64,000 nt of DNA from an uncultured bacterium (GCA_903906425.1 CAIVKH010000193.1:2903-66902), one strand, 5' to 3'. Shown: positions 1,099 through 61,177, counted from the first letter of the stretch. A program made the numbers and translations. Notes: generated by a model from the letters alone, not told the origin.

Positions 1099-1146
1099 TT
1101 CCAATCATTGGAAGACTGCGTTCACGGTTTTCTCCAATGATTGGAA
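1099..1146. repeat. Palindrome doublet locus 1
   Basis: TTCCAATCATTGGAA (1099) + CTCCAATGATTGGAA (1132), period 33. Confidence 0.95.
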
Positions 1147-1299
1147 ACCACGAATGATCACCAAGGGACACGAATGGAGGATCGATGACGATGGCGAAAG
1201 GATTGGTTGCGCGCGGGTTGACGGGGGCGGGGGCTTTGTGGTTAATGGCGGGCCGTTTTTTGTGGCGATGTGTCGATCTGAATCCAGTCGAGGTGTGTG

Positions 1300-2358
1300 A
1301 TGAATTTTGAGCTGTTGAAAAAACTTAGCGAGGCGGCGGGCGTGCCCAGCCGCGAGGAATATTTGCGCGAGATCGTACGGGCGGAGCTGCAGGGGGTCGT
1401 AAAAACCATCGAGGTGGACACGATGGGCAATGTGATCTGTTTCAAGCCGGGCAGCGGGAAGTCGAAGGCGAAGAAGAAGGTGATGCTCGCGGCGCATATG
1501 GACGAGATCGGTTTTTTGGTGCGGTTCATTGATGACAAGGGTTTCCTGCGGCTGCAGCCGGTGGGCGGGTTCGATCCGCGGCAGTTGTTCGCTCAGCGGG
1601 TGCTGGTGCACGGCCGCGCGGGTGCGCCGCTGCGCGGGGTGCTGACGTATTCGACGAAGCCGACGCATATGCTCACGCCGGAGGAGCAGAAGGCGACGCC
1701 GGTGATCGAAAACTTCTTCGTGGACCTGGGCATGAAGGCCGATGACGTGAAGAAGGTCATCCGGCTGGGCGACATGGTGACGATGGACCGTACGTGCGAG
1801 CTTTGCGGCGGGAACATCGTGGGCAAGTGCATGGACAACCGCGTGGGCGTTTTCGTGATGATCGAGGCGATGAAGGCGGTGGGAAATCATCAGGCGGATA
1901 TTTTTGCGGTGGCGACGACGCAGGAGGAGGTCGGGCTGCGCGGGGCCTCGACGAGCGCCTACGCGATTCATCCGGACGTGGGCGTGGCGCTGGATACGAC
2001 GCTGGCGAATGATTTTCCCGGCATCAGCGACAGCGACCAGATCACGAAGCTCGGCGGGGGCGTGGGGATCAAGATCATGGATGCTTCGTTCATCTGCCAT
2101 CCGAAGCTGGTGGAGCATTTCCGCCAGATCGCCGAGACGGAGAAGATCGCGCACCAGATGGAAGTGCTGCCGCGCGGCGGCACGGACGGCGCGGCGATGC
2201 AGCGGGCGCGCGGCGGCGTGCCGAGTATCACGCTGAGCGTGCCGACCCGGTACATTCACACGGTGAACGAAATGGTGAACCAGGCGGATGTCGAGGCGGC
2301 GATCACGCTGCTGGCCCGCTTCCTCGAACAGGCGCACGACGGCAACTATGCGCTGTGA
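1300..2358 (+). CDS. M42 family metallo-aminopeptidase (TET/FrvX-like)
   Basis: AAHMDEIG, DNRxG, QEEVGLRGA, GGTD and RYIH metal-binding motifs. Confidence 0.92.
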   Translation: MNFELLKKLSEAAGVPSREEYLREIVRAELQGVVKTIEVDTMGNVICFKPGSGKSKAKKKVMLAAHMDEIGFLVRFIDDKGFLRLQPVGGFDPRQLFAQRVLVHGRAGAPLRGVLTYSTKPTHMLTPEEQKATPVIENFFVDLGMKADDVKKVIRLGDMVTMDRTCELCGGNIVGKCMDNRVGVFVMIEAMKAVGNHQADIFAVATTQEEVGLRGASTSAYAIHPDVGVALDTTLANDFPGISDSDQITKLGGGVGIKIMDASFICHPKLVEHFRQIAETEKIAHQMEVLPRGGTDGAAMQRARGGVPSITLSVPTRYIHTVNEMVNQADVEAAITLLARFLEQAHDGNYAL

Positions 2359-2492
2359 GACGATGCGCCGCAGCGCGGCGCGCGACGGCTCTTTTCTCTG
2401 GACGGCTGAAACGACGTGCCATAGAAACCATGCGCTGGCTGGCGGGTTCTTATGATCGAACGAGTCCATTTCATTTTGCGGCGGCTGGGCGT

Positions 2493-3179
2493 ATGAAGCT
2501 CAGCGTGTTGGTGCCCGTGTTCAACGAGCACGGAACGGTCGCGGAACTTTTGGAGCGCGTGGGCCGCGTGCCGCTCGAAAAGGAAATCGTGATCGTGGAC
2601 GACGCTTCGACGGACGGGACGCGCGAGATCCTGCGCGGCTTCGAGGCGCGCGCCGGCTTCAAGGTTCTCTATCACGAAAAAAACGGCGGCAAGGGCCGCG
2701 CCATCCGCACAGGGCTTGAGGTCGTCACCGGCGATGTGGTCGTCATCCAGGATGCGGACCTCGAATATGACCCGCACGATTTCATCGCGATGATGAAGCT
2801 TTTCACGGAGGGCGGCGCAAAGGCGGTGTTCGGATCGCGGCGGCTGCGCAAGGAGAACAAGCAGTACGCCGGGCCGATTTATTATGCCGGCGGCGTCTTC
2901 CTGTCGTGGGTCACGCGCCTGCTCTACGGCATCCAGATCACCGACGAGCCGACCTGCTACAAGATGGTGGACACGCACCTGCTGCGCTCGCTCGGCCTGA
3001 CGTCGGAGCATTTCGAATTCTGCCCGGAGGTGACGGCGAAGCTCGCGCGGCGCGGAGTCAAAATTTTTGAGGTGCCGATCAAGTACATGCCGCGGCACAA
3101 GAGCGAGGGCAAAAAGATCTGCTGGCGCGATGCGGTCGAGGCCGTCTGGGTGCTCTTGAAATTTCGTTTCGGGAATTGA
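2493..3179 (+). CDS. GT2 glycosyltransferase, polyprenol-phosphate glycosyltransferase-like
   Basis: LSVLVPVFNE, VDDASTDGT, NGGKG, QDADLEYDP; start set at MKLSV. Confidence 0.92.
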   Translation: MKLSVLVPVFNEHGTVAELLERVGRVPLEKEIVIVDDASTDGTREILRGFEARAGFKVLYHEKNGGKGRAIRTGLEVVTGDVVVIQDADLEYDPHDFIAMMKLFTEGGAKAVFGSRRLRKENKQYAGPIYYAGGVFLSWVTRLLYGIQITDEPTCYKMVDTHLLRSLGLTSEHFEFCPEVTAKLARRGVKIFEVPIKYMPRHKSEGKKICWRDAVEAVWVLLKFRFGN

Positions 3180-3182
3180 CCG

Positions 3183-5801
3183 ATGCGCCGCTGGGAAAAT
3201 TTTCTGCTGGTCGCGCTCCTCGTGCTCGCCGCGCTGCTGCGCTTCGGCGGGCTGTCGCACGATCTGCACGAGGGGCGGTTGTATCACCCGGACACGGCGA
3301 AGCAGGTCCGCGCGGTGGAATTGTATTATGGGGGGCATTACTTCTGGCACGTCGGCAACAAGGACTACGACGGCTATCCGCTTTTTCACGCACGCATCGC
3401 CGAATGCATTCTCAGGGTAATCGAGCCGGTCCGCAGCGGTGTGTGCGACCTGCTCGGCATTCCGACCCGCGCGGGCGCGCTGGTGACGGACTTCCCGGTG
3501 TACTGGCTCATGCTCACGATGAACGCCGCGCTCTCGACGCTCATCGTGCTCATCGTGTTTCGCGCGGGCCGCGAAAACTTCGGGCCGCTGGCCGGCTGGG
3601 TTGCCGCCGCGCTAATGGCCATCTCGCCGGCCGACATCACCTCGACGCACATGGCCGCCGGCGATGTGACGACCGGATTTTTCGCCGCGCTCTCGCTGTT
3701 CTGGACCTTCCGGGTTTTCCGTCTCGGCCGCTATCGCGATTACGCGCTGGCGGCGGTGTTCGCGACCTTCGCCTTCGCGGCCAAGTATTATGCGGCCACC
3801 GCCTTCTTCGCGCTGGCGCTCGCGTACATCACGCGCGCCGGCATCACGCGGCCCGCCGCATGGTTTTCGCCCGACGCGCTGCGGCGCATCGGCGTCGCCG
3901 CCATCGCGGCGATCATCGCGCTGCTCGTGGCCATTCCTGCGCTGCTCACGGACTTCAGGGCCGAACTGGCCGACGTCTGGGTCGCGCTGATTCACAGCAC
4001 GCAGCGTTATCCCGCGTCGCTGATCGGGGCGGGGCAGTGGAAGCGCTACTGTTTTTCCATGCGCGTGAACCTTCCCGATCTGATTCGCACGATCAGCCCG
4101 CTCACGCTTGCGGCCGTCGCACTCTCCTTCGCGGGCCGCCTCCGTCGCGACGCGCGATTCTGGATTCTGCTGATCGGCCCGGTCCTCTACGTTTTTCTCG
4201 CCGTCGGCAGCCGCGGCCTCGTGAATCCGATCTACCACATTGACATCACGCCGCCGCTTTTCCTGCCCGTCGCCTTCTTCGGCTCGTGGGTCTTCGAAAT
4301 CACCGGCCGCGTTCGCGCGCTGTCGCGCGTGCTTTACTGCGCGGCCACCGCCTCCGCGCTCGGGCTCTTTGCCGCCGACGCCGCCCGCGAAGTTTTCTTC
4401 GCCTGGCACATGGACACGCGGCGCGTGTGCGACACGTGGGTCAACGCGAACGTCCCTCACATCTTCCTCTCGCACACCGGGCGCTACACCCTGCGCTGGG
4501 ATGCCGAGGATCATCCCGATGTCAACGTGCGGGGCATGGTCTTCATAAGCTCGGCCCTCGATCCGGTGCGCGTGCCCGATTACGCGATTCCGCTCAAGCA
4601 ATTCGCGCTCGAAGAGACGCCGCTGACCCAGTTCAGAAACATCGCGGAAAAGGTTTCGGTCGTCTGCCCGGCGCTCCTGCGCGCGGGCTTCAGCCTGCCG
4701 GTCAGCCAGCGCTGGCCGTCGCAAGCGGAGAACGCCTTCATCATGGACAACGGCGCGGAATTCGTCCGCAGCGAAAAATGCTTCATCCTGAACCACGGTG
4801 AGGGGCTGGTGCGATGGATCGTGGAGAGCAAGCCGCTGGCCGAGGTCTGGATCGCGGTGAAAACTTCCGCGACCTCCTCGGCCGTCCGCATACAATTTGA
4901 AGGCCAGCACAAAAAGTTTCACTTCGACCAGGACACGGCGGCCGTGCTTCACATCGAAAAGCCGCGGCCGGAATTTCCGACGGGCGACGGCCGCTTCTTC
5001 TACCGCCTCGAAATTGACGCGCCCACGGCCCGGATGAAAATCATGCTGGCGACGGACCTGCTCGATGCCGGCCGCCTGTTTGCCCGCCTCGGCCGCGATG
5101 CCGATGCCGCGCCGCTGCTGGCGAAGGGCGCGACGGCCGCGAACGATCCCGCCGCCGCCGCGCAGGCGATCATCTCCGCGAGCCGCGCCGGCATCGCGCT
5201 TCCGCGCGACGACTCCGCGCGCCTCGAAAAACTTGCCGCGAAGGTTTTGACGGCAACCAACGCCTATGCAGTCTTCGCCGTCTTCGGCATCCATCCGGAC
5301 TATCTCGACGCGCTGCCGTTTCTCGGCGTCGGCACCGCGCAAATGGGTGCAAATGGATTCCGTTCGGCCCCGCTGCCGTTCGCGGACGAAACCGGGGAGT
5401 CGCGCGAACTGATTGTCACCACCAACGCCAGGGCTCGCCCGGACGGAAATTTCTACGGCGTGTGGACCGGCCTGCTGATGCTCGACCCGGGCCCGTACCA
5501 GGCGAAGCTGCTGGCGCGCGCGCCGTCGGGCGCGTCGCACGGTCAGACGCTGAAGCTCACCGTGCGCGACGAAAACGGAAAAGCCATCGCCGAACGCCCG
5601 CTCGAAATTCCGCCGCTCGACGCGCGCGCCTACACCGTAATTCCATTCGATCTCGAAGTGCCCGCCGGCGTCGCAGGCGTCATCATCACATTGCGCAGCG
5701 ACGAGGCGCCGGACCTCGCCGTCGGCGGCATCGAAATCCGGCCCGACGTTGTCGCCAACGTCATCGCCCTCGGCAAGGCCCTCGCCCCCGCGAAACCCTG
5801 A
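3183..5801 (+). CDS. GT-C fold (ArnT/PMT-like) membrane glycosyltransferase with large C-terminal soluble region
   Basis: ALLRF..L....YHPD after first TM, many TM helices, AKY motif; 3 nt downstream of the GT2 gene. Confidence 0.7.
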   Translation: MRRWENFLLVALLVLAALLRFGGLSHDLHEGRLYHPDTAKQVRAVELYYGGHYFWHVGNKDYDGYPLFHARIAECILRVIEPVRSGVCDLLGIPTRAGALVTDFPVYWLMLTMNAALSTLIVLIVFRAGRENFGPLAGWVAAALMAISPADITSTHMAAGDVTTGFFAALSLFWTFRVFRLGRYRDYALAAVFATFAFAAKYYAATAFFALALAYITRAGITRPAAWFSPDALRRIGVAAIAAIIALLVAIPALLTDFRAELADVWVALIHSTQRYPASLIGAGQWKRYCFSMRVNLPDLIRTISPLTLAAVALSFAGRLRRDARFWILLIGPVLYVFLAVGSRGLVNPIYHIDITPPLFLPVAFFGSWVFEITGRVRALSRVLYCAATASALGLFAADAAREVFFAWHMDTRRVCDTWVNANVPHIFLSHTGRYTLRWDAEDHPDVNVRGMVFISSALDPVRVPDYAIPLKQFALEETPLTQFRNIAEKVSVVCPALLRAGFSLPVSQRWPSQAENAFIMDNGAEFVRSEKCFILNHGEGLVRWIVESKPLAEVWIAVKTSATSSAVRIQFEGQHKKFHFDQDTAAVLHIEKPRPEFPTGDGRFFYRLEIDAPTARMKIMLATDLLDAGRLFARLGRDADAAPLLAKGATAANDPAAAAQAIISASRAGIALPRDDSARLEKLAAKVLTATNAYAVFAVFGIHPDYLDALPFLGVGTAQMGANGFRSAPLPFADETGESRELIVTTNARARPDGNFYGVWTGLLMLDPGPYQAKLLARAPSGASHGQTLKLTVRDENGKAIAERPLEIPPLDARAYTVIPFDLEVPAGVAGVIITLRSDEAPDLAVGGIEIRPDVVANVIALGKALAPAKP

Positions 5802-5816: not shown

Positions 5817-5863
5817 TTCCAATGATTGGAACTTCCGCCGGCACTTTTTTCCAATAATTGGAA
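5817..5863. repeat. Palindrome doublet locus 2
   Basis: TTCCAATGATTGGAA (5817) + TTCCAATAATTGGAA (5849), period 32. Confidence 0.95.
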
Positions 5864-5905
5864 GAAGAGGCTTGCCCAATAGAAATATCTTTTTATTTTC
5901 AGGGC

Positions 5906-6400
5906 ATGAAAAGGAACTTCATCATCACGATCGGTGCCGGAATCTTTCTGGCGTGTCTGCTGGCGGGCTGCGAAGGGAACTCAAATAGCAGCAAGGATTC
6001 CTCGTCTCTCCCCAACGACAAGGATGAGTTGAACATTTCGGCGGCCGTCATGCTCGGCCCGCACAAGGCGCAAGTCGCCCAGAACGCGACCATCACCCGC
6101 GAGATGAACTCGTCCGATGTCAACGGTTCAATGGTGAGCTACTCGTTTGAGCAACTGAACTGGCCCGTTTCGGAGGGATGCGATGGCGGCTGCTATGTGT
6201 TCTGGGAACTGAACGGCCAGGCCGTTGGCGGCTTGTTTGACGCTCACGGAGCCGGACAGACGGTCAAGTCTTTGGAAAATATCTATGGCGGCTATCTCGA
6301 TGGCAAGCGGCCGGCCAAAGGCCAGACGGTCTATTTCGCATTCGTCAATCTGGATGGCACCGAGCGGACGAACGTCAAGAAGAGCGTGAATCCCTGGTAG
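5906..6400 (+). CDS. Uncharacterised lipoprotein, paralogue of 58161..58748
   Basis: Signal peptide with lipobox LAGC, Ser-rich linker, shared HGxGQTxKxLENIYGGYL motif. Confidence 0.8.
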   Translation: MKRNFIITIGAGIFLACLLAGCEGNSNSSKDSSSLPNDKDELNISAAVMLGPHKAQVAQNATITREMNSSDVNGSMVSYSFEQLNWPVSEGCDGGCYVFWELNGQAVGGLFDAHGAGQTVKSLENIYGGYLDGKRPAKGQTVYFAFVNLDGTERTNVKKSVNPW

Positions 6401-6575: not shown

Positions 6576-6623
6576 TTCCAATGATTGGAAATTTTCGGCC
6601 GCGGTCTTTTTCAATCATTGGAA
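6576..6623. repeat. Palindrome doublet locus 3
   Basis: TTCCAATGATTGGAA (6576) + TTTCAATCATTGGAA (6609), period 33. Confidence 0.95.
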
Positions 6624-6664: not shown

Positions 6665-7594
6665 ATGAAACGTTTTCTGAAACTGATCGCCGCGATTTCA
6701 TGCGGCGCCATCTTGATGCTTGCATCCGCCGCGCAGGCCGCACGCGACCTCACCTTCTTCCAGGTATCCGATACGCACTATGGAAAGAGCCCGGTGGGCG
6801 ACAAGACCGTGCCGATGCTGGTGGACAAGATGAACGCGCTGCCGGGCACGCCATATCCGGCGATCATCGGCGGCAAGGTCGGAGCGCCGCGCGGCGTAAT
6901 CCACACGGGCGACATCACCAACGACGGGAAGAAGGAACAGTGGCTGATGTTCGTGCGTGATTACGGGCTGACCGGCAAGGACGGGCGGCTGGCCTGGCCG
7001 GTGTATGAGACGATCGGCAACCACGACGGCAGCGCGGGGCTGCCGGTACGAAACGGAATCCGCGAACGCAACAAATCCCGCATCGGCCTCACGGCGGTTT
7101 CGGATAGCGGGCTCCTTTATTCGTGGGACTGGGACGGCATTCATTTCGTCAGTTGCGGAATCTCGGTTGGCACGACGGCGAGCAAGTACGATCCGGAGCA
7201 CAGCTTCGAGTTTCTCGAAAAGGATTTGAAGCAGAGCATCGGCACCAGCGGACGGCCGGTGATCGTTCTTCACCATTTTGGCTTCGACAAGCACGCCGAC
7301 GGCTGGTGGTCGGATGAGTGGCGAGCAAATTACTTCGCGCTGATCAAGGACATCAACGTCATCGGCATCCTCCACGGCCACTCGCACGACACCTCCATCT
7401 ACGAATGGAACCAGATTGACGTTTATCATCCGCCGCACTTCAAGCAGGACGGCCCGAAGGATACCGCACCGGTCACGCACGGCTTCTTCGTCTTTCACAT
7501 CACCGATGACGAACTCTCCGTGGCCGAGCGGAAGCTCGACGACACCTGGGGCATGACCGCGAAAAAGAAATTCAAGCCCGCACCCGCGAAATGA
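6665..7594 (+). CDS. Secreted calcineurin-like metallophosphoesterase
   Basis: Signal peptide; SDxH, GDxxxxG, GNHD, HH, GHSH motifs. Confidence 0.88.
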   Translation: MKRFLKLIAAISCGAILMLASAAQAARDLTFFQVSDTHYGKSPVGDKTVPMLVDKMNALPGTPYPAIIGGKVGAPRGVIHTGDITNDGKKEQWLMFVRDYGLTGKDGRLAWPVYETIGNHDGSAGLPVRNGIRERNKSRIGLTAVSDSGLLYSWDWDGIHFVSCGISVGTTASKYDPEHSFEFLEKDLKQSIGTSGRPVIVLHHFGFDKHADGWWSDEWRANYFALIKDINVIGILHGHSHDTSIYEWNQIDVYHPPHFKQDGPKDTAPVTHGFFVFHITDDELSVAERKLDDTWGMTAKKKFKPAPAK

Positions 7595-8691: not shown

Positions 8692-8738
8692 TTCCAATCA
8701 TTGGAAGTTTTCCTGCCCGGCATTTCCAATCATTGGAA
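8692..8738. repeat. Palindrome doublet locus 4
   Basis: TTCCAATCATTGGAA at 8692 and 8724, period 32; between convergent genes. Confidence 0.95.
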
Positions 8739-8756: not shown

Positions 8757-9533
8757 TCACGACGCGCGCGCGGCAGGCAGCGCGTAGGGCGAGCGCTGGC
8801 GGCGACCCAGTTTGCTGCGCAGCCCGCCAAACACCAGCGCCCAGCCAAACCAGAACAGCCCGCTGGTCGGCTCCGGCACCAACAGCAGATCATTCATGAT
8901 CCGAAAATTGTCGATGTAGTAGCTCTGCTCCCCCCGCCCGTTGCGCGTCACTTCCACACCGACGGTCGTCACATGGCTCAGCATGTTCGAGAACTGATTG
9001 GCCGTTCCCCCATACCAGTATTGATTGTACAGCCCCGGCGACAGCGGCACCGTCAGCGTGTACCATTGGTCCGGACTCTGTATCACCGAATTCTGCGGGT
9101 CCAGCACCATGTAAAAGTTGTTGGCCCCGTCGCTCATGTGGAACGTCAAGGATGACGGCAGCGTGCCGGCCGCATAGAAGTCAAACTGAAAGGCCACATA
9201 GGGGTTCGTGCTGGAATTATAATCACCACCGAACGGGGCGCCGCTCGTGTCGGCCAGGAATTCTCCCGTCTGCGGCTGCCCATAACGCCCTTGCGCTTGA
9301 AATGTGCCTTCCAGCGCCCCTGCCCCATAGTCCGGCGACTGAGAAACTGTCAGGCCATCGCCGCCCGCCGACCAGCCCTCGGTCGTGCCTGAGAACGTTT
9401 GCATATAGAACACCGCCGCACCCACCGGCATGGCCGGTGCCAGCAATAGCATTCCGGCAACTGCAAATGTCCGGATTTCATGCTTTATATGCCTCGAAAG
9501 ACACATGCTGAATGCTGAATCCAATGCGATCAC
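8757..9533 (-). CDS. PEP-CTERM sorting-domain protein (start uncertain)
   Basis: C-terminal VPEPTS + hydrophobic stretch + basic RSKLGRRQR tail; N-terminal signal-like LLLAPAMPVGA. Confidence 0.8.
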   Translation of the reverse strand: MIALDSAFSMCLSRHIKHEIRTFAVAGMLLLAPAMPVGAAVFYMQTFSGTTEGWSAGGDGLTVSQSPDYGAGALEGTFQAQGRYGQPQTGEFLADTSGAPFGGDYNSSTNPYVAFQFDFYAAGTLPSSLTFHMSDGANNFYMVLDPQNSVIQSPDQWYTLTVPLSPGLYNQYWYGGTANQFSNMLSHVTTVGVEVTRNGRGEQSYYIDNFRIMNDLLLVPEPTSGLFWFGWALVFGGLRSKLGRRQRSPYALPAARAS

Positions 9534-15305: not shown

Positions 15306-15353
15306 TTCCAATCATTGGAAAAATGCGCAGCCGGTGATTTCCAATGATTGGAA
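15306..15353. repeat. Palindrome doublet locus 5
   Basis: TTCCAATCATTGGAA (15306) + TTCCAATGATTGGAA (15339), period 33; between divergent genes. Confidence 0.95.
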
Positions 15354-18109: not shown

Positions 18110-18300
18110 TTTGCCTTTCGCGCCGCCATCCGCACGACGGCGATCACTATTTTTCGATGCTACTGTATAGCCAGCCGACACGAAGCGACGCGACGAAATT
18201 TTTTGTGAAAAAAATATTTCGAGATTGTTGCATTCGCCACCGCGATGCGGTAGCAAGTCACCCAGCGTGGATCGGCGGTTTCACTCTTCGCTTTCGCCGG

Positions 18301-18347
18301 TTCCAATGATTGGAAAGTTGCCGCGCGGTGACTTCCAATGATTGGAA
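18301..18347. repeat. Palindrome doublet locus 6
   Basis: TTCCAATGATTGGAA at 18301 and 18333, period 32; between divergent genes. Confidence 0.95.
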
Positions 18348-18406
18348 AAAAGAGGCTCGAAACGGGCCTTTTCCGCCGCATCGCGCGAATAATGAGGTTT
18401 TGTGTC

Positions 18407-21794: not shown

Positions 21795-21841
21795 TGCCAA
21801 TCATTGGAAATTTGCGCCTTCGCGACTTCCAATGATTGGCA
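21795..21841. repeat. Palindrome doublet locus 7
   Basis: TGCCAATCATTGGAA (21795) + TTCCAATGATTGGCA (21827), period 32. Confidence 0.95.
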
Positions 21842-24346: not shown

Positions 24347-24425
24347 TTCCAATCATTGGAACTTTGCGTCGGGTATTTTTCCAATGATTGGAAAAGACGG
24401 CCGCGCCAACTTCCAATGATTGGAA
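24347..24425. repeat. Palindrome triplet locus 8
   Basis: Copies at 24347 (C), 24379 (G) and 24411 (G), periods 32 and 32. Confidence 0.95.
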
Positions 24426-29488: not shown

Positions 29489-29535
29489 TTCCAATCATTG
29501 GAAGTTATCGCGGCGCAAATTTCCAATCATTGGAG
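29489..29535. repeat. Palindrome doublet locus 9
   Basis: TTCCAATCATTGGAA (29489) + TTCCAATCATTGGAG (29521), period 32. Confidence 0.95.
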
Positions 29536-35711: not shown

Positions 35712-35759
35712 TTCCGATGATTGGAAAAGACCGGCCGCGAAAACTTCCAACCATTGGAA
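35712..35759. repeat. Palindrome doublet locus 10
   Basis: TTCCGATGATTGGAA (35712) + TTCCAACCATTGGAA (35745), period 33. Confidence 0.9.
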
Positions 35760-36525: not shown

Positions 36526-36572
36526 TTCCAATGATTGGAAATGACCGCGCCGCTGACTTCCAATCATTGGAA
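36526..36572. repeat. Palindrome doublet locus 11
   Basis: TTCCAATGATTGGAA (36526) + TTCCAATCATTGGAA (36558), period 32. Confidence 0.95.
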
Positions 36573-39671: not shown

Positions 39672-39718
39672 TTCCAATGATTGGAAACCACCGGCCCGCA
39701 AGTTTCCAATCATTGGAA
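39672..39718. repeat. Palindrome doublet locus 12
   Basis: TTCCAATGATTGGAA (39672) + TTCCAATCATTGGAA (39704), period 32. Confidence 0.95.
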
Positions 39719-43526: not shown

Positions 43527-43573
43527 TTCCAATGATTGGAAGTTTGCGGGTCGGAAGTTTCCAATGATTGGAA
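43527..43573. repeat. Palindrome doublet locus 13
   Basis: TTCCAATGATTGGAA at 43527 and 43559, period 32. Confidence 0.95.
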
Positions 43574-43660
43574 GATGCGATTCGAGGCGGCATCGGCGCG
43601 CCATCCACCTCGCATGAGGGCGGCTGAGGGGGCGGCGGGCAACGGGGAGAGGAATACGGC

Positions 43661-43689: not shown

Positions 43690-43695
43690 GCGCGG

Positions 43696-45362: not shown

Positions 45363-45363
45363 T

Positions 45364-45410
45364 TTCCAATCATTGGAAACCAGCGCGCCGCAGACTTCCA
45401 ATGATTGGAA
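45364..45410. repeat. Palindrome doublet locus 14
   Basis: TTCCAATCATTGGAA (45364) + TTCCAATGATTGGAA (45396), period 32. Confidence 0.95.
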
Positions 45411-45476
45411 AAAAGCGGCGCGCGGTCGAAAACCGGCCCGGCGTCGCGTAGGTTTGCGAGCGTGATGCCGATTGAA

Positions 45477-46466: not shown

Positions 46467-46487
46467 CACCGCGCCGGGCGCGACAAA

Positions 46488-47444: not shown

Positions 47445-48295
47445 GACTCGCCCACTTTGATTTCCATGCCTTCGCGCACAAGCGCGGCCCACGGCCACGC
47501 CCTGTGGACTTCCACATCGAGCGCCACAAGCGATTCATCGCTTCGCGACGGAGCATGATGCGTGACGAGCAATTTCTTCGCGCAGGATTCCTGCGCGACG
47601 CGAATGCAATCCTGCCAAGTGCTGTGGCCCCAGCCCTTGAATTCCGCATATTCGTTGTCGCAATAATGTCCGTCCATCAGCAGCAGCGACACCGGCGACG
47701 GCTCGCGGCACAGCCGCAAAAAATGCGCGCGCTCCTCTTCGTTGGATTCGCCCCACTCCATGTCCGTCGCGATCACACAGGATGCGCCGGATGCCGGCTC
47801 ATCAATTCGATATGCGGTCGAGCCGTCGGGATGATGCAACCCGCACCACCGGATTTGCAGCCCGCCAAAATTTCTTGGCGCGACGGAATTGGAACCGCGC
47901 AGCGTTGTGAACTGGATCCGCGATTTCAGATCTTCGACCTGGAGCGGCCAGAACGGCCGGTGCATCAGGCGCGGAATCACATCGCCCACCAGATGTCCGC
48001 CGCGCTTCGGCGATGCCATTTCGATGTTCCATCGCGGGCTGTAAATCAGCCCCAGCGACGGCAGCCCCGAGACATGATCGAGGTGATAATGTGTGAACAG
48101 CATCAGCAGCGAAGAAATTTCGCGCTCGCCATCGAGGCGAAGGCCGAGCGGCCGCGCGCCGGTGCCCGCGTCCACCAGTACGCGCTCGCCGCGCGCACCC
48201 TCGATCAGAAACGCCGTCGTCTCCCCGCCATATTTCATGAACTCCGGCTGCGCGACCGGCGACGTCCCGCGGCAACCGCCCACAATCAGTTTCAT
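47441..48295 (-). CDS. Metallo-beta-lactamase-fold hydrolase (cyclic-nucleotide phosphodiesterase-like)
   Basis: GCRGT.P, YGGET, DAGTG, THYHLDH, HP, GWGHS, HHAP. Confidence 0.85.
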   Translation of the reverse strand: MKLIVGGCRGTSPVAQPEFMKYGGETTAFLIEGARGERVLVDAGTGARPLGLRLDGEREISSLLMLFTHYHLDHVSGLPSLGLIYSPRWNIEMASPKRGGHLVGDVIPRLMHRPFWPLQVEDLKSRIQFTTLRGSNSVAPRNFGGLQIRWCGLHHPDGSTAYRIDEPASGASCVIATDMEWGESNEEERAHFLRLCREPSPVSLLLMDGHYCDNEYAEFKGWGHSTWQDCIRVAQESCAKKLLVTHHAPSRSDESLVALDVEVHRAWPWAALVREGMEIKVGES

Positions 48296-48340
48296 AACCG
48301 CCTCAAAATTTGATTCCATCCTCGCGGAGAAGAAAGCTTT

Positions 48341-48387
48341 TTCCAATCATTGGAAACCACCGCCCGGCAAATTTCCAATCATTGGAA
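48341..48387. repeat. Palindrome doublet locus 15
   Basis: TTCCAATCATTGGAA at 48341 and 48373, period 32. Confidence 0.95.
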
Positions 48388-48444
48388 AAGACCGCCGGCG
48401 AATCCGCGCCGAGCCACGGCAGCGCAGTCCGCGAAAATTCGCGG

Positions 48445-50556
48445 CTAGCCCTTCTCGGTCAGATTCCAGATTCCGTCCCAGTCCGCGAGCCTGCCGTCGC
48501 GAAGCTCGGCGCAGCGCGCGGCATATTTCTCGGACAGTTGATCGTCCTGGATGGCCGCAAACAGGTCGTGCGCCCCGGCCCACTTCTTCTCGCGGATCAG
48601 CTGCATGGCCCTCGAATGGGTTTCAAATCGCGGTGGTATCGGCTCGCCGGACAGGCCGAGCGGCTGGAAGACGCGCACCGGCGTCGCGCGGCCGACCACG
48701 CGGATCAGCCCGATTTCACGGCCCGGAACCGAACCGTTCAATTGCTGCCACGTGGACTCTGCAACCATGATGTACGTGCCAAACGCCTTGTTCGCGCCTT
48801 CCAGCCGCGATGCCAGATTCGCCGCGTCGCCGAGCATCGTGTAGTTGAAACGCTGCCGCGATCCCATGTTGCCGACGATGACTTCGCCGCTGTTCAGCCC
48901 GATGCGCATGCGCATCGGAAGGCCGGCGGCGCGCCCCTCAAATTCCGCGCGGCGCTCGTCGAGTTTTCGCTGGCAGCGGATCGTCGCGCGCACCGCCCGC
49001 AGCGCATGATCCGCCTGCGACATCGGCGCGTTCCAAAATGCGACGATCGCATCGCCGATGAATTTGTCCACCGTGCCGCCTTCCTCGAAAATTATATCGC
49101 ACGCATCGGAGAGCACGTCGTTCATCAGCGCGGTCAAAACCGGCGGCTCGAGTTTTTCGGAGAAAGTCGAGAATCCCTTGAGATCGGAAAAGAACATCGT
49201 GAGTTCGCGCTTTTCGCCGCCGAGTTGAAGTCTGTCAGGATTGGCGAGCATTTGTTCGATCACGTCGCCGCTGAGGTACTGGCGAAACGCTGATTTGATG
49301 AAGCGCTTTTGTTTGCCTTCGGTCGCGTAGCTCAGAATCACCGCGCCGAGCATCGAGAATCCGCCAGACATCCACGTGAAAACCATCGGCCACCAAAGCC
49401 CGCCGGAATACGCGCCGAAACCGATCGCAAGCGGAACGAGCATGAAACCGGAAAATACGCCGGCGACTTGCGGACCGTTCCGGCAAAAAAGAATCGCAAG
49501 CGCGCCGGAAATAGCGAGCAAGAGGGCCACCGCCGCGACGAGCGGACGCGGCGCATCGCGAAGAAAATCGCCTTCGAGCAAATTGTCCAGAAATGTCGCG
49601 TGAACTTCGACGCCAGGATAATCGCCGCCCGCCGGTGTCGTCTTGAGATCCTTGAGGCCGGGCGCGCTGACGCCAAAGAAGACATAGCAGTCTTTCAGCT
49701 CGGCCGGATCAACAACCGGTTTCTTTCCATCCACGATTCGCAATTCGGACTGGATGATCGCGGCGGCCGGATATTTGTGATGCGTTCCGGTCGGACCGCG
49801 GAAGCGGAGCAACGCTCGTCCCTGACTGTCGAGCGCGATGCGCGTTCCGCCAACCTGCATCACGCCGTTTTCAATTTTGATTTCGCGGTCTTTCGGATCG
49901 CGCGCGGCGAGCCACGAGGCCAGCCCGAGGGATGGCACCGTCTGGCCATCGAAAATTCGGAACGGCGTTGCGCGGCGATAAACTCCGTCATCATCCGGTT
50001 CATCTTTCACACTCGCCAGCATCGCCGCATTCGTTGCGACGGACGGAACAGGAAATGTCGCACCGGGTTCATTGGCTGGAAAAGTCTCCGCTCCCGAAAT
50101 CTTCCAGACCGGCCTGGGAATATTCGCGGTCCAGTTCGTCGTCTGCTTCGCCTGTTTCCCCATGAAGAACACGGCGACAAAATCCTTCTTCTCGCCAATC
50201 TTTGCGCCGAAAGTTTGATCGTCTTCCACGCCTGTCAGCGACGGTTCGGAATAAAGCATGTCGAACGCGATGACCTTCGCGCCGGCGCGCCGGCAAAAAT
50301 CCAACACCGGATTGTAGGCCTGCCGCATCCACGGCCAGGGAAGCGAATTTTCTCTTGCAGCCCAGTCGAGGCTCTCCTGATCAACAACGATGACTTTGAT
50401 CTTTTCCGTGGCAGGCGACGGTTTCCACATTGCGTGAACCCGCCACATCCACGGCGTGGATTCAAAACGGTCAAGCAAACCCGACAGCCAGAGCGCCGCA
50501 ACGAGGAGCGTGGCGGCGAATCCGAGAATCAGTGATTGTGAAATCTTTTTTCGCAT
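48445..50556 (-). CDS. CHASE2-domain class III adenylate cyclase
   Basis: LPWPW.R, DxDGVYR, PGVEVHA CHASE2; 3 TMs; FSDLKGFS, DKFIGDA, YTMLGDAANLASRLEG. Confidence 0.93.
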   Translation of the reverse strand: MRKKISQSLILGFAATLLVAALWLSGLLDRFESTPWMWRVHAMWKPSPATEKIKVIVVDQESLDWAARENSLPWPWMRQAYNPVLDFCRRAGAKVIAFDMLYSEPSLTGVEDDQTFGAKIGEKKDFVAVFFMGKQAKQTTNWTANIPRPVWKISGAETFPANEPGATFPVPSVATNAAMLASVKDEPDDDGVYRRATPFRIFDGQTVPSLGLASWLAARDPKDREIKIENGVMQVGGTRIALDSQGRALLRFRGPTGTHHKYPAAAIIQSELRIVDGKKPVVDPAELKDCYVFFGVSAPGLKDLKTTPAGGDYPGVEVHATFLDNLLEGDFLRDAPRPLVAAVALLLAISGALAILFCRNGPQVAGVFSGFMLVPLAIGFGAYSGGLWWPMVFTWMSGGFSMLGAVILSYATEGKQKRFIKSAFRQYLSGDVIEQMLANPDRLQLGGEKRELTMFFSDLKGFSTFSEKLEPPVLTALMNDVLSDACDIIFEEGGTVDKFIGDAIVAFWNAPMSQADHALRAVRATIRCQRKLDERRAEFEGRAAGLPMRMRIGLNSGEVIVGNMGSRQRFNYTMLGDAANLASRLEGANKAFGTYIMVAESTWQQLNGSVPGREIGLIRVVGRATPVRVFQPLGLSGEPIPPRFETHSRAMQLIREKKWAGAHDLFAAIQDDQLSEKYAARCAELRDGRLADWDGIWNLTEKG

Positions 50557-52075: not shown

Positions 52076-53047
52076 TTATTCAGTCACCGGTTCAACAGAC
52101 TTCTTGATTTGCTCGAACAGCGCGGCGATCTGGCCGCGAAGCTCCGCGGACTTCGCTTCATCCGCAGCCTTGAACGCTTCATCAATGCAGGCGAGCGCGG
52201 CGACGCGGTCGTTCTGCCCGAAATAACTTCGCGCTGCGCGATAAAACCGGTCGGCGGCATCGGCGGATTTTTTCGCGGCCTGCCAGGCCGCGCCGGCGGC
52301 GCGGAGGTTGTCGGCCATTTCGCGAATATTGCCGGCAGTGCGCCAGCCGTCCGCGGCCTGATCAAATTTTCCGGCAGCTTTTCCCGCGTCGGATTTCTGC
52401 AACAGCTTTCCTTCGGCGGCAGCGACGCGGGCGTTCATCGTGGCGCTGTGACTTTTTTCGGCGCGCCGCTGCGCCATTTTCAGCAACCGCTGAGCTTCGT
52501 CCAAATCGCCGTGCTGAACCGCGAGATCAAGCTGGACGAGGAGCACGTCGAGTTGCGCGACATCGGATTTTGCGGCGGCGAAAGCGTTCGATGCGAGCGC
52601 CGTTGCCTCCGCGGCCTGGCCGAGCGCAGACGCGGTCATCGCCTGCAAAACGAGAACCGGCTCGCGGTCCATTCCGGCGCGTTCGAATTCGCGTCCGGCT
52701 TCGACGAGCAGCGGCGACGCGGACGAGGGATGGCCGGAGCGCAGGTGACACGCGGCGGCGTTGTAGGCATTGCGCGCGATTTCCGCGCTGTCGTCGAGCG
52801 CACGGGCGCGGGCCAGCGCAAGTTCGTAACATTTCGCCGCGCGCAAAAAGTTTCCGCTCTGGTAAGCGGCCTGCGCCGATTTCACGCTCTGCGCAATCTG
52901 CGCGTCGGTGACGGGGCCGGTCGCCTCGAATTTCTTTACGGTTCCGCAGGCGGCGATCAGAAAAATGGCTGCGAGAGTTCCAATGATTGGAAATGTCCGC
53001 GACGCAAATTTCCAATGATTGGAAAATTCTTTCGCGGCGCGGTTCAT
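52076..53047 (-). CDS. TPR-like helical lipoprotein whose signal peptide contains a palindrome doublet
   Basis: GGAGG RBS, ATGA overlap with mlaD stop, lipobox IAAC, Ala-rich helical repeats. Confidence 0.78.
   Translation of the reverse strand: MNRAAKEFSNHWKFASRTFPIIGTLAAIFLIAACGTVKKFEATGPVTDAQIAQSVKSAQAAYQSGNFLRAAKCYELALARARALDDSAEIARNAYNAAACHLRSGHPSSASPLLVEAGREFERAGMDREPVLVLQAMTASALGQAAEATALASNAFAAAKSDVAQLDVLLVQLDLAVQHGDLDEAQRLLKMAQRRAEKSHSATMNARVAAAEGKLLQKSDAGKAAGKFDQAADGWRTAGNIREMADNLRAAGAAWQAAKKSADAADRFYRAARSYFGQNDRVAALACIDEAFKAADEAKSAELRGQIAALFEQIKKSVEPVTE
52978..53024. repeat. Palindrome doublet locus 16 (intragenic)
   Basis: TTCCAATGATTGGAA at 52978 and 53010, period 32; inside a CDS. 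Confidence 0.95.
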
Positions 53048-54078
53048 GGCGATTTTCCTCCGGTCGCGGGCGAGCCGACATCGGACGGGGGAATTAATTC
53101 GGTGGGCTTGGGCTGCGGGATGTAGTCGCGGATGAGCCAGTGTTTCTGGATGCCTTCGATCAGCCGCTCGGCTTCGCGCAGAGTTTCCTGCGTTTGCAAA
53201 ACGAGGCCGGGCAGGTCGTCGGCTTCGTGGCCGACTTTCGCGGTCATCGGCGGAAGTTGTGCGGTTGTCTTTTTCACGTCATCGAGAATTTTCTGCACCT
53301 GACCGATTGACTGCTGCGTCTGCGCGATGGTGTCCTGAACTTGTTTGAGAATCGCGTTGATCTGCTCGGCGGTTGCGGGATCACGCAGGAGTTTGCCTAC
53401 GGTGCCTTCGCCGTTGTTGATGCCGGCGGCCATTTGGTGCAGGTCAGCGAGAATCTTCATCAGCGGGCCGTCGTCGCTCTTCATTCGTGCAGTGAGCTGC
53501 TCGACATTGCCGGCAACTTTCATGATCGGGCCGTTGGTATCGCGCAGGTCGGCGGCGAGTCCGCCATATTCCTCGGCGGTGGTGCGAATCTGGCCGAGCA
53601 GCGGGATCGTCGCCTCGCGGACCTGGTTGAGCAGATCTTGTGCGAGTTGCAAAATTTCCGTGTCTTTCTCCGCCACGAGCGTGCCACCGTCCTTGAGCCG
53701 TTCGCCCGTGCCTTTCGTGATGGTGATGAACGCGTCGCCGGCGAGGGCGTAGCGCTTGGCGACTTTTGCTTTCGAGTCGGCGCGGATGAAGCGGAACCAG
53801 TTGCCGGTGATTTTGATTTCGCCGATCATTTTTTCGTTTTCGTCGATGTCGATTTTGTCAACGGTGCCGACGACGGTGTTGAGGATTTCGACCTCGGAAC
53901 CCTTCTTGAGGCCGAGCGAGCCTTCCTCGGGGAACGTCAGCTTGATGGTGTGGACGGGCCTGAACCAGCCCTGATAATGGCCGGCAAAAATTACGCCGGC
54001 AATGAGCAGCAAAATCACGAGCAAAACGAAAGCACCGACGATTTCGTTGACGTATCTAAATTTGAATGGCTTTGCCAT
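53044..54078 (-). CDS. mlaD: MlaD/MCE-domain protein with long helical tail
   Basis: VGAFVL TM, GLKKGSEV.I...VG.V MCE motif, GEGTVGKLL. Confidence 0.85.
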   Translation of the reverse strand: MAKPFKFRYVNEIVGAFVLLVILLLIAGVIFAGHYQGWFRPVHTIKLTFPEEGSLGLKKGSEVEILNTVVGTVDKIDIDENEKMIGEIKITGNWFRFIRADSKAKVAKRYALAGDAFITITKGTGERLKDGGTLVAEKDTEILQLAQDLLNQVREATIPLLGQIRTTAEEYGGLAADLRDTNGPIMKVAGNVEQLTARMKSDDGPLMKILADLHQMAAGINNGEGTVGKLLRDPATAEQINAILKQVQDTIAQTQQSIGQVQKILDDVKKTTAQLPPMTAKVGHEADDLPGLVLQTQETLREAERLIEGIQKHWLIRDYIPQPKPTELIPPSDVGSPATGGKSP

Positions 54079-54079
54079 C

Positions 54080-54793
54080 TCAGTTCTTCTCCATCTCAAC
54101 CAGCCGGCCATCGCTCAGCCGCCAGCGCGACGACGGGTTCGGCGCGGTAATTTGCCACGACTCGCCTTCGCTGACCATCAGCAAGATGGCGGCGCCGTGT
54201 TCACGCGCCCGCGTCACCAACTGTCCGAGCGGCCCCTCCGCATCGCCAGTGATGTCGCGCATGGGGCGACCGAGAATCACCAGCGAAGGTTCGCCGAGAA
54301 ACGCGCGGACCCATTCGAGGCGGCGCAAAATATTCTTCGACACCGACGCCGGACGTCCTTCTGGAATTGGCCAGCAACCGGCGATTGTCGCAAGTTCTTC
54401 GATTTGCTTGCGCGTCTCGGCGTTCAATTCGCCTTGATGATACCGGAAAGAGAGCGTGAGGTTTTCGTCATTGTCGAGATTGCTGACCCAGTTTGAGGCG
54501 ATGCCGTCAAAAACACGCCCAATGCCGCCACGTGCGTGCGCGGCGGCATCGGGCGTCATCACACGCCAATCGACGCCTTGAAAAAATACCGTACCGTTTT
54601 CAATTTCCAGCAAACCGCTGACGACATCGGCGAGTGGAGCGCGGCGAATTTCGTTCGAAAGCTCGACTACGGCCAGTTCACCGGCTTTCAACACGAATTC
54701 ATCCACGGACAGTGCCGAGTCGTATGGAAATTCCGCGGTCACGCGGACGGTGCGCATTTCGACAATCGCTTTTCCGGCGGATGCGTCACGCAT
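54080..54793 (-). CDS. Degenerate ABC ATPase-like protein (MlaF position)
   Basis: ABC scaffold (GL...GTV.F.G, R..IG.VF, ENL.L, P..VS, RA....P) but Walker A/B and signature motifs missing. Confidence 0.7.
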   Translation of the reverse strand: MRDASAGKAIVEMRTVRVTAEFPYDSALSVDEFVLKAGELAVVELSNEIRRAPLADVVSGLLEIENGTVFFQGVDWRVMTPDAAAHARGGIGRVFDGIASNWVSNLDNDENLTLSFRYHQGELNAETRKQIEELATIAGCWPIPEGRPASVSKNILRRLEWVRAFLGEPSLVILGRPMRDITGDAEGPLGQLVTRAREHGAAILLMVSEGESWQITAPNPSSRWRLSDGRLVEMEKN

Positions 54794-59948: not shown

Positions 59949-59965
59949 GATCAACCGCACGCAAA

Positions 59966-60385
59966 TTACAGTTTTGTGCCGTTGATTGGATTGTGCTTGG
60001 GCGGGTCATGCCAGAACTCTACGAAATCCATCTGCATCGTTTTGCCATCTGAGCTCAGCGTGCAATCAATCTCACCCGTGCCGACGCCGGGGTTCGTGAA
60101 CGGTCCGGTGACCGTGGTGCCGTCCTGGGTGAACGTTCCAGCCAAATGCTGGGATGAGAACCCGGCATCGTTATACTGGACGAAAGTTCCATCGGCATTA
60201 AACTTCCACCACGTCTGGCCGCCATCTGTTTGATTCACCATCGCCCACTCGCCCACGACGCTGCCAGCACTACTGCCGCCTTTGTCGCTGCTGCCGCCGC
60301 CGTTGTCGCATCCCGACACTAACGCCATTGCGGCCATGGTCATGACGATCACGCCCACCATTTTCATGAATCCACGCACTGTCAT
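59966..60385 (-). CDS. Small lipoprotein, lipocalin-like
   Basis: Lipobox VSGC, Gly/Ser linker, VVGEW..FNADGTF motif; GGAG upstream. Confidence 0.75.
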   Translation of the reverse strand: MTVRGFMKMVGVIVMTMAAMALVSGCDNGGGSSDKGGSSAGSVVGEWAMVNQTDGGQTWWKFNADGTFVQYNDAGFSSQHLAGTFTQDGTTVTGPFTNPGVGTGEIDCTLSSDGKTMQMDFVEFWHDPPKHNPINGTKL

Positions 60386-60539
60386 TTCACTATCTCCTGT
60401 TATATTTATTCAACGTACAAACTGATCAAGCGCGCGAATTCCTACGCAACAATGCAGTGACTTCGCAACTTAATTTTGATTATTTTTGAGCCTCGCCAAT
60501 CGCGACAATCATGGAATCCCGTCCGCATTTTCGGCCCGC

Positions 60540-61052
60540 TCAGCGGCGTTTTTTGTCGATGGGCTTGACGAAGAGAATTTCTGCCATGCTCACACGGTCG
60601 CTCTTCCGCAGTCCGCGGATTTGTTCGAGCAACCGTGCAATGAGGTCGCGTTCGCGTTGGTCTTCCTCCGGCACATCATCCAACACATCGCGGATCGCAA
60701 TTTCGAGCGTCTTGAAATCGTTGCCTGGATTTAGGGCCAGCAGATAGCGGGCAGGCGCGACTTCGACCAGATGAAGAAAGGGAATGCGCCGAAGTGCGTC
60801 ACTGGGACCGATGACGATCAGTCCCGTGTGCGCCGCCATATCCACGACTTCCACCGCCGGTCGTGCCGATCCGTCGGTGCGCATGGCGCTTTTCGCAAGT
60901 TTCACAATGGCGCGTCCGCGGTCCGGATCGATGTATCGCAATTCCCTCAGGGTGCTTTCCGGAAGCGTCACCGTGATGGGGCGGCTCGGCCCGGCATATT
61001 TGGGCGGACGTCCACCGGCGCCTTTTCTGCCAGTATGTCGATTAGTTTTCAC
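60540..61052 (-). CDS. Hypothetical protein with N-terminal AT-hook/RHH-like DNA-binding region
   Basis: GGRPPK followed by ITVTLPE..L..L; GTG start; coherent 170-aa ORF. Confidence 0.65.
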   Translation of the reverse strand: MKTNRHTGRKGAGGRPPKYAGPSRPITVTLPESTLRELRYIDPDRGRAIVKLAKSAMRTDGSARPAVEVVDMAAHTGLIVIGPSDALRRIPFLHLVEVAPARYLLALNPGNDFKTLEIAIRDVLDDVPEEDQRERDLIARLLEQIRGLRKSDRVSMAEILFVKPIDKKRR

Positions 61053-61130
61053 TTTGGAAATGGAACTACGTGATACTTCTTAAGGTGAAACATATTCTTG
61101 TCAATTGCCAAATCATGCCCAAACGTATTT

Positions 61131-61177
61131 TTCCAATGATTGGAAAATCCGGCCGCGCAAACTTCCAATCATTGGAA
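61131..61177. repeat. Palindrome doublet locus 17
   Basis: TTCCAATGATTGGAA (61131) + TTCCAATCATTGGAA (61163), period 32. Confidence 0.95.

Follow-up and report, generated by a model that had tools for sequence, protein, structure and literature searches.

Phased TTCCAA-N3-TTGGAA palindromes belong to a class-specific repeat family dispersed between bacterial genes

The window analysed here, 64,000 nt from the genome of an uncultured lake bacterium (GCA_903906425.1, CAIVKH010000193.1:2903-66902), raises the question of what the short, paired palindromes are that recur between its genes. A search with TTCCAATSATTGGAA at up to one mismatch gave 35 matches, 27 of them perfect and eight with one mismatch, against a chance level of 0.01 on average and at most one in 100 dinucleotide-preserving shuffles. 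The copies were located at 17 loci, 16 doublets and one triplet (24347), and neighbouring copies were 32 bp apart in 14 of 18 intervals and 33 bp apart in four. Because the G+C content of the window is 60.3%, the AT-rich palindromes stand out. Loosening the threshold to three mismatches added no copy, so the window holds no singleton. A preliminary description, made from the sequence alone, had listed the same 35 copies at 17 loci with the same starts, the same division into perfect and one-mismatch copies and the same periods, all of which were reproduced by the search, the shuffles and the coordinates. Based on a similarity search with FtsZ, the host probably belongs to Verrucomicrobiota or Kiritimatiellota in the Planctomycetes-Verrucomicrobia-Chlamydiae (PVC) group. 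The doublets belong to a class-specific dispersed palindromic repeat family with the core TTCCAA-N3-TTGGAA.

The genome of this bacterium (G000; 6.66 Mb in 383 contigs, with the window at G000:C193:2903-66902) contained 3,686 copies at up to one mismatch, including 2,777 perfect ones. They formed 1,874 loci: 290 singletons, 1,402 doublets, 137 triplets, 44 quadruplets and one quintuplet. Doublets with a step of 32-33 bp represented about 76% of about 1,850 loci. Neighbour distances peaked at 32 bp (1,533), followed by 33 bp (234) and 31 bp (23). Below 60 bp, 1,790 distances were 31-33 bp, 15 were 20-22 bp and seven together were 17, 30, 43 or 54 bp; none was found at 23-29 or 34-42 bp. A minor class of 37 distances was present at 63-66 bp. 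A looser 6-3-6 pattern with up to two mismatches identified 267 singleton loci. True singletons therefore exist, because only about 28 of these 267 had the remnant of a partner 31-33 bp away on one side or the other. The genome-wide count and the distance peak favour the dispersed doublets proposed in the preliminary description. Its statement that full-length singletons are lacking held within the window but not genome-wide.

The unit consists of a strict core and a variable spacer. In 1,531 doublets with 25-nt flanks, core positions agreed with the consensus in 95-100% and spacer positions in 37-87%. The core of G000 is a 7-1-7 palindrome, TTCCAAT-S-ATTGGAA, with G or C at the centre (57/43 and 46/53 in the two copies); A or T was present in 13 of the 1,531 pairs. 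The centre bases of the two copies were combined near-independently (GC 473, GG 395, CC 338, CG 312). Weaker shoulders beside each core, AAAT/ATTT and C-S-G, extend the unit to about 29 bp within the 32-bp period. The spacers have a length of 17 nt and a shared consensus, which reads A-a-n-n-c-S-g-n-n-g-C-G-c-A-A-A-n after orientation by expectation-maximisation, with a polarity that is perhaps partly over-fitted. Spacer positions able to pair in a spacer hairpin were complementary below expectation, for example 334 versus 529, and the spacer is therefore asymmetric and present in both orientations. Its polarity showed no association with the direction of transcription (p = 0.31). Distinct sequences accounted for 1,479 of 1,529 spacers. 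Nearest neighbours were at distance 0 in 85 cases and at distance 1 in 230 cases, versus 1.6 and 35 in column-shuffled controls (together 315 versus about 36). Because they are nearer to each other than the controls, the spacers look like diverged copies of each other. Core and spacing are preserved while the spacer sequence drifts.

The distribution of the family was determined in a panel of 201 sampled genomes of the class and in 201 genomes from other classes of the same phylum. The exact 15-mer was present in 20 of 41 relatives with up to 90 copies each. A one-mismatch search showed that other genomes use other central triplets; triplets and flanks were genome-specific. All variants of the 6-3-6 type include CCAN5TGG, the PflMI site that the preliminary description had noted in most copies. 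The core TTCCAA-N3-TTGGAA was present in 115 of the 201 class genomes, whereas the reversed control pattern gave 0-2 copies. High counts were observed in G030 (1,345), G099 (856), G181 (746), G111 (597) and G126 (462). Phased doublets were detected in 32 of 100 class members sampled, compared with one of the 201 genomes of other classes. In genus g10, three species held 170-193 copies and four species 2-7. The balance of singletons and doublets also varied, with 14 singletons versus eight doublets in a sample of G099 and only three doublets among the 334 copies of G120. The palindrome reported in the preliminary description is thus real, but its 15-mer is a genome-specific form of a conserved unit with a variable central triplet; its doublet arrangement dominates in G000 but is not universal, and the family, there assigned to one chromosome, spans the whole class.

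Motif counts of 1-7 in seemingly negative genomes are partly coincidental, because coding sequences for F-Q-x-L-E and F-P-x-I-G-N mimic the motif, and true intergenic doublets are also present in such low-count genomes. In a class-III aminotransferase-like open reading frame (ORF) at 420-1751 (L108, G019:C63; L112, G013:C32), F-Q-R-L-E...F-P-R-I-G-N mimics a doublet with a 31-bp step. The motif-poor congener G011 had two copies and no substitute high-copy palindrome in 240 kb, indicating that the elements are dispensable. Samples of 30-80 kb from five motif-free families did not contain such a substitute either. The idea of a dialect replacement in motif-poor genomes was rejected, except for family f29, where it held. 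A different, GC-rich palindrome was noted in G128 (family f13).

In family f29, the genus g82 held 435-462 TTCCAA copies and no TTCCAC-N3-GTGGAA, while nine genomes of the genera g38 and g70 contained 12-178 copies of TTCCAC-N3-GTGGAA and 0-2 of the TTCCAA form. Elsewhere in the panel, the TTCCAC dialect did not exceed three copies per genome. Both arms were changed in this dialect and complementarity was preserved. A lineage-wide replacement of this kind can only originate from amplification of a mutated master copy. Together with the genome-specific central triplets and flanks, and with arrays that differ by whole 32-nt units (see below), the two-arm dialect shows that the elements were multiplied from master copies. 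Repetition in g82 extended to entire units with their spacer (AAAATTTTCGGCATTTT type), found on many contigs at 88-91% identity (L148 10713-10816 versus G144), which suggests a recent expansion, unlike the diverged spacers of G000.

Step sizes were conserved across lineages. In samples of nine other genomes, all 70 steps of up to 130 bp were 22, 31, 32 or 62 bp, and 67 of the 70 were 31-32 bp. The arrays of G126 and G111 and the TTCCAC arrays of G051 showed steps of 22 and 30-31 bp plus a single 42 and a single 63. The spacers were unrelated in sequence between these lineages. Two steps that are one helical turn apart, found in at least six families and in two dialects, are most simply explained if the cores must face the same side of the duplex. 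Core and helical phase are thus constrained. The argument for sites on the same face, previously drawn from the spacing in the window, was strengthened by these steps in 10 genomes of at least six families.

The elements of G000 are nearly confined to intergenic regions, with hardly ever more than one locus per gap. Out of 1,837 loci, 114 were located in the 3' 70% of called genes and 161 at contig edges; the remainder was intergenic. Elements occupied 291 of 597 divergent, 256 of 584 convergent and 499 of 1,516 plus 484 of 1,589 tandem regions, and the mixture of tandem, convergent and divergent placements described for the window therefore holds genome-wide, as judged with a rough gene caller. 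Convergent gaps have exact limits. None of the 165 gaps shorter than 30 bp was occupied, while occupancy reached 69-81% in gaps of 60-90 bp (46/67), 90-120 bp (49/63), 120-160 bp (47/58) and 160-200 bp (25/33). Gaps with two or more separate loci numbered 7, 7, 7 and 10, versus conservative Poisson expectations of 44, 68, 62 and 55. Where tandem gaps measured 120-300 bp, the element was closer to the upstream stop in 73-80% (n = 188 and 93), and the median distance between element and stop codon was 33 nt. The genes neighbouring the window elements have unrelated functions.

Comparisons between relatives revealed persistence as well as turnover. Among 19 family relatives with an FtsZ of 44-56% identity, none carried a copy closer than about 1.5 kb to ftsZ. 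In genus g20 (genes with 74-89% DNA identity), arrays were present at orthologous sites in G030, G099 and G153 and had decayed in G153. One of the g20 arrays differed by an indel of exactly one 32-nt unit. One G099 singleton resembled a sequence of about 19-21 bp inserted with respect to G030, although a non-coding alignment of about 80% identity is unsafe. From the g20 and ftsZ comparisons, the elements were therefore inherited vertically over the long term and gained, lost or decayed in some lineages; once in place, they persist through speciation. A decayed unit of G153 (L121, G153:C117, about 1500-1560) had a GC-rich hairpin, CCCGCCCAGGCGGG, inserted at the palindrome centre. In metagenomes, where the best match reached 58% protein identity, none of 36 loci contained the motif. 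Four lake or freshwater DNA runs over window positions 29001-49000 contained pieces identical to the window, representing the same strain, and cross-mapping copies; no joint skipping a doublet was found among the matches listed. No RNA run was listed as matching the window. In a 20-kb stretch of G030 (L090, G030:C1:20001-40000), four of four arrays were located at synteny breaks relative to G153. Gene order in the class is conserved in blocks of 1-4 kb between species of 75-89% DNA identity. Synteny was equally fragmented at similar identity in g38, which is without the TTCCAA form and held 15-103 TTCCAC copies in the genomes compared, and it was well preserved in g10 with or without the motif. 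Since g38 is fragmented alike and g10 is intact regardless of the motif, no causal role of the elements in rearrangements is claimed.

We tentatively favour a new family resembling repetitive extragenic palindromic (REP) sequences and bacterial interspersed mosaic elements (BIMEs), in which the cores may be duplex binding sites for a putative dimeric protein, placed on the same face so that dimers could interact across two or three turns. Such a family would be a functional counterpart of REP/BIME outside the REP families linked to REP-associated tyrosine transposases (RAYTs). Each core would be bound by a sequence-specific homodimer, and neighbouring cores on the same helix face, two or three turns apart, would let the bound dimers touch. 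A doublet might then carry a tetramer and an array a larger assembly, comparable to Lrp/AsnC- or NrdR-type proteins on phased 15-16-bp palindromes. Palindromes in phased pairs are known from NrdR and NtrC operators, and the spacing of NrdR boxes has reportedly been described by Rodionov and Gelfand. The same protein or a partner activity might copy or homogenise the core. One possibility is that the bound complexes organise the nucleoid or its topology at the borders of transcription units; another is that they have no host function. The preliminary description had offered either an organising site or a mobile unit, but these need not be alternatives, as there is evidence both for copying from master copies and for long-term upkeep of core and spacing.

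Several points weigh against a duplex binding site. The palindrome fits a hairpin as well as a dimer; single-strand folding gave one long copy1:copy2 hairpin for 370 of 400 doublets with RNA parameters and for 331 of 400 with DNA parameters. Direct and inverted arrangements of a doublet are indistinguishable because every unit is itself palindromic. The two step sizes could represent two inherited unit types instead of a physical constraint, and the high core identity could result from ongoing replication of master copies, not from selection site by site. Among 246 doublets with a mismatch in both copies, the same change in direct register was found in 54 (29.0 +/- 4.9 expected) and the mirror-image change, a weaker excess, in 40 (28.5 +/- 4.8 expected). 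These paired mutations speak for duplication of units and do not separate the dimer and hairpin models. Pairing is not essential, because singletons dominate in several genomes. No binding protein was found among the candidate families tested. The AsnC/Lrp family (PF01037) was not co-distributed with the motif across the 201 genomes; searches detected no member in G025 and G047, which are motif-rich, but found members in motif-free families (f30, 9/9 genomes; f23, 16/17). The histone fold PF00808 was detected in none of 61 genomes. The G000 assembly was 93% complete with 5.4% contamination and breaks at the 161 edge loci, and genes were called with our own simple codon-usage ORF caller, which places stops reliably but not starts, in part owing to the ATG within the motif.

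The same hairpin is central to an explanation that we consider rather unlikely, in which the doublet, with the spacer as loop, acts as single-stranded DNA like a REP doublet forming a hairpin (REPIN). It would be moved in trans by an HUH transposase (Y1, RAYT type) or another single-strand transposase, and core conservation would reflect the replication of master sequences, not duplex binding. Population dynamics of the REPIN type have reportedly been treated by Bertels and Rainey. Doublets at fixed distance outnumber singletons by 1,402 to 290, which is the argument also made for REPINs. Conserved arms and a variable spacer correspond to stem and loop, the 370 hairpins among 400 doublets and the compensatory two-arm dialect agree with this, abundance is patchy within genera and target-site duplications are lacking, as expected of HUH enzymes. 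Y1/RAYT-like genes were present in G000 and in five of five high-copy genomes tested. Moreover, the sequence most similar to a RAYT-like protein of 165 aa from G030 contained an in-frame TGA in three motif-poor genomes (G011:C21:43867-44331, G003:C30:23345-23845 and G036:C2:198602-199063); other motif-poor genomes have intact copies. However, no Y1 locus was flanked by TTCCAA copies, neither among the four of G000, one of which had a doublet at 1.1 kb, nor on both sides among ten loci with the Y1 domain PF01797, fetched from five other high-copy genomes. The RAYT-type Y1 gene of G000 (L001, G000:C7:31721-35062, locus 1405-2133, minus strand) is flanked by its own GTAG-tagged, GC-rich palindromes of the CCATAGTAGCCG..GGGC..CGCCC.CGG type. 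With about 29 copies, this GTAG-type REP represents a second repeat family in G000, much smaller than the TTCCAA one. Neither Y1 subfamily was co-distributed with the motif. The 165-aa type, compared in a 61-genome panel, was weak or absent in G000, G001, G040, G025, G026, G111 and G173. The other, a 338-aa Y1 (HUH) protein with a C-terminal extension (L002, G000:C2:74700-78026, ORF 847-1863, minus strand), is present class-wide with up to 10 matches per genome; across the 201 genomes this Y1 plus helix-turn-helix protein did not follow the motif and was absent from G030, G040, G010, G012, G014, G047, G058 and G066. A motif-like singlet, one base short, lies directly upstream of its start codon. 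Furthermore, pairing between the two centre bases is possible in only 51% of doublets, and a hairpin does not explain steps one helical turn apart. The family shares with REP, BIME and REPIN elements the short palindromic units (about 20-35 bp) in hundreds to thousands of copies, the strictly extragenic position, frequent pairs or small clusters at fixed spacing, of which an intergenic region usually contains one, units better conserved than the linkers between them, the lack of target duplication and an abundance that varies among related species. It differs in its AT-rich stem, in a genome of 59% GC, and in a unit that is perfectly palindromic, with no bulge to orient it. Its arms are not species-specific but shared unchanged by many families of the class, the steps within arrays follow the helical repeat (22 and 31-32 bp), and divergent promoter regions contain elements as often as 3' regions do. 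In the available text of PMC3733652, GTAG and CGTC tags define two REP super-families, and this was the only work found on REP-type repeats in Verrucomicrobia. The TTCCAA family has neither tag and no conserved tetranucleotide beyond the palindrome in the 1,531 doublets. The REPIN/RAYT analogy of the preliminary description did not hold up on these grounds.

A role at the RNA level appears quite improbable. Transcribed palindromes in 3' or 5' untranslated regions would form hairpins in either orientation that protect mRNA or are processed by RNases, and both functions, protection of mRNA ends and processing by RNases, are known of REP hairpins in E. coli. The nearness to the upstream stop in tandem gaps, the short median distance to stop codons, the stable predicted RNA hairpins (mean -25 kcal/mol) and the independence of orientation from transcription would agree with this. 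On the other hand, divergent gaps, which contain no 3' ends, were the most occupied class with 49%, steps that follow the DNA helical repeat are meaningless in RNA, the flanks do not co-vary like an extended hairpin (unit-internal pairs at or below expectation) and no Rfam family matched. At the gathering thresholds, Rfam gave no match in the window; at E values up to 5, two weak chance matches appeared, a 163-nt miRNA-precursor model spanning the 45364 doublet (E 0.58, far below gathering) and a match at 5667-5777 that misses the elements. Intrinsic bidirectional terminators are the least credible of the explanations. Many copies are located within 40 nt of a stop codon, but the stem, rich in AT, precedes A instead of U and has the T run upstream, and divergent gaps are the class most often occupied. 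Canonical terminators with a GC-rich hairpin and T run were present beside the element in 166 of 865 cases (19.2%) and without it in 264 of 1,133 (23.3%). Because these are equally frequent with and without the element, it neither replaces nor marks terminators. Operators of a global transcription factor with a very large regulon are very improbable. Palindromes in phased pairs are the architecture of many operators, among them those of the Lrp type: the available text of PMC10201364 describes 15-bp semipalindromes with 15-17-bp spacers for BarR, with the DNA wrapped on an octamer. This 6-3-6 arrangement, about 31-32 bp from centre to centre and read by the dimers of an oligomer, is similar to that of the elements. 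However, Lrp/AsnC and NrdR arrays are located at one or a few promoters, whereas here about 1,850 loci include 44% of the convergent gaps, which have no promoter. In addition, the AsnC family does not follow the motif, the elements are closer to stops than to starts, the neighbouring genes are functionally unrelated, 3,686 near-identical 15-mers cannot arise site by site and the ftsZ-proximal copy is absent in the 19 relatives. A small regulon is excluded because the roughly 1,850 loci are found in all gene orientations; the earlier view that the element is neither a terminator nor a single regulon was thus confirmed. Hardly more credible than a terminator is a DNA uptake sequence (DUS) in inverted pairs, an arrangement often found in Neisseria. 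The high copy number, conservation in a higher taxon and lineage dialects are common to both, and also to HIP1 and the uptake signal sequence (USS). HIP1, DUS and USS are single short words that are abundant inside genes, whereas here the full palindrome is the unit, genes are almost free of copies and half-sites are not enriched. Solitary TTGGAA outside the elements occurred 2,721 times versus 2,329 expected (1.17), TTGGAAA had a ratio of 1.02 and half-site ratios ranged from 0.86 to 1.17. Congeners, moreover, carry about 190 or only 2-7 copies. Like miniature inverted-repeat transposable elements (MITEs), Correia, ERIC and BOX elements, the family is non-coding, non-autonomous and dispersed with lineage-specific expansion, but its units are far shorter (about 20-32 bp). 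A MITE with target duplication was rejected, as no 2-8-nt k-mer was common to the left and right flanks above noise at offsets 0-15. No parent insertion sequence (IS) was seen among the multi-copy genes of G000, a weak test in a draft assembly. A CRISPR array, in which many identical repeats would alternate with unique spacers of at least 26 nt, was rejected as well on repeat architecture, given loci of 1-5 units, 17-nt spacers with a shared consensus and about 1,850 dispersed loci. In membership tests, the elements thus belonged neither to terminators, uptake sequences, target-duplicating MITEs or RAYT-flanked REPs nor to a single regulon, CRISPR or an Rfam RNA.

If the cores are binding sites of a dimeric protein, as we favour, a more far-reaching version can be formulated, although it is unlikely in our estimate. 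The class would possess a co-evolving protein-DNA system. In it, a phased palindrome pair, bound by an abundant, putative dimeric protein, would stand in almost all larger gaps between transcription units and would act as a boundary element or chromosome-organising code or as a site for a new type of recombination or copying enzyme. Its specificity would have switched at least once, from TTCCAA to TTCCAC, and whole species would have lost the system. A candidate for the trans-acting gene was not evident in the window, in agreement with the preliminary description, nor elsewhere among the candidates tested. The co-distributed gene that it had proposed to look for did not emerge, as Y1, AsnC/Lrp, histone-fold and TnpB families do not track the motif; TnpB (PF07282) was present in two of 61 genomes. 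An all-against-all BLAST of 4,862 G000 ORFs revealed no evident transposase family, which is weak evidence since the draft assembly collapses IS copies. The multi-copy ORFs represented prophage and other families. No paper with the motif was found in literature searches. The cis-element that had been called undescribed is therefore a real family, for which neither these searches nor Rfam provided a description.

If the favoured reading holds, an entire class within a PVC-group phylum possesses a repeat system not described before, which in some species fills most usable intergenic gaps, once each. The strict 6+6 recognition core, the helical-phase rule and the natural specificity switch would offer a handle on REP-like DNA. 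They are relevant to the question of whether repeats of this kind are parasitic or serve the host, to what recognises them and to how they are copied without a flanking transposase. Congeners with about 190 versus about two copies, the sister-genus dialects and one species with decaying arrays represent natural contrasts for finding the trans-acting gene. On the practical side, the ATG in the motif misleads ORF callers, and the motif breaks short-read assemblies, as the loci at contig edges illustrate. The positions of the window elements relative to called genes are given in Table 1.

Table 1. Palindrome loci of the window and their gene context (positions in nt from the first letter of the window; +, plus strand; -, minus strand).
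Position	Arrangement	Step (bp)	Gene context	Remark
1099..1146	doublet	33	11 nt past stop (1088) of + gene; upstream of + gene at 1297	
5817..5863	doublet	32	16 nt past stop (5801) of PMT_2-like + gene	second copy with centre A
6576..6623	doublet	33	between + genes 5858-6400 and 6665-7594 (Metallophos)	
8692..8738	doublet	32	convergent gap; 15 nt past stop 8677 (+), 19 nt before stop end of - gene 8757-9533	
15306..15353	doublet	33	divergent gap between - gene ending 15075 and + ATPase-like gene	longest ORF of the ATPase-like gene begins inside the motif, start uncertain
18301..18347	doublet	32	divergent gap between - gene 17414-18256 and + gene 18338-19354; upstream of ftsA/ftsZ	
21795..21841	doublet	32	20 nt past ftsZ stop (21775)	outer mismatches mirror-symmetric (TGCC...GGCA)
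24347..24425	triplet	32 + 32	62 nt past stop 24285; upstream of kinase/FGE-sulfatase gene	
29489..29535	doublet	32	2 nt downstream of - gene stop (29537); upstream of - glycoside hydrolase (GH) gene 26998-29526	
35712..35759	doublet	33	divergent gap between - gene 34479-35648 and + gene 36090-36524	one mismatch in each copy
36526..36572	doublet	32	2 nt past stop 36524 (+)	
39672..39718	doublet	32	21 nt past stop 39651 (+)	
43527..43573	doublet	32	39 nt past stop 43488 (+)	
45364..45410	doublet	32	2 nt past stop 45362 (+)	
48341..48387	doublet	32	58 nt downstream of stop (48445) of - gene 48445-50556	other neighbour ambiguous: - 47441-48346 or + 47504-48313
52978..53024	doublet	32	between two - genes; 20 nt downstream of stop (53044) of 53044-54111	inside uncertain 5' extension of longest ORF 52076-53047
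61131..61177	doublet	32	2 nt downstream of stop (61179) of - gene 61179-62225; upstream of - gene 60540-61052	

Copies with G at the centre read ttccaATGattgg, and longest-ORF callers start genes inside the element. The histogram of distances to ORF starts in G000 showed spikes at -10 and -40 nt, with the window ORFs 18338, 15348 and 24420 as examples. It is probable that automatic annotation has given these genomes numerous spurious N-terminal extensions, FQSLE, SNDWK and PMIGN among them. Further repeats and multi-copy genes were observed in G000. A tandem array of nine 41-bp units (G000:C137:5599-5942) is located upstream of an RND efflux operon and ends beside a normal single core; its unit is an imperfect TTCCAAATTCTGGAA-like palindrome plus GTTTCCACGTTACCAG. 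Contigs C4, C56, C272, C273 and C371 contained four to six related phage-like gene sets with portal-, capsid- and tail-like genes, and a Y-family polymerase-like gene was present in six copies.

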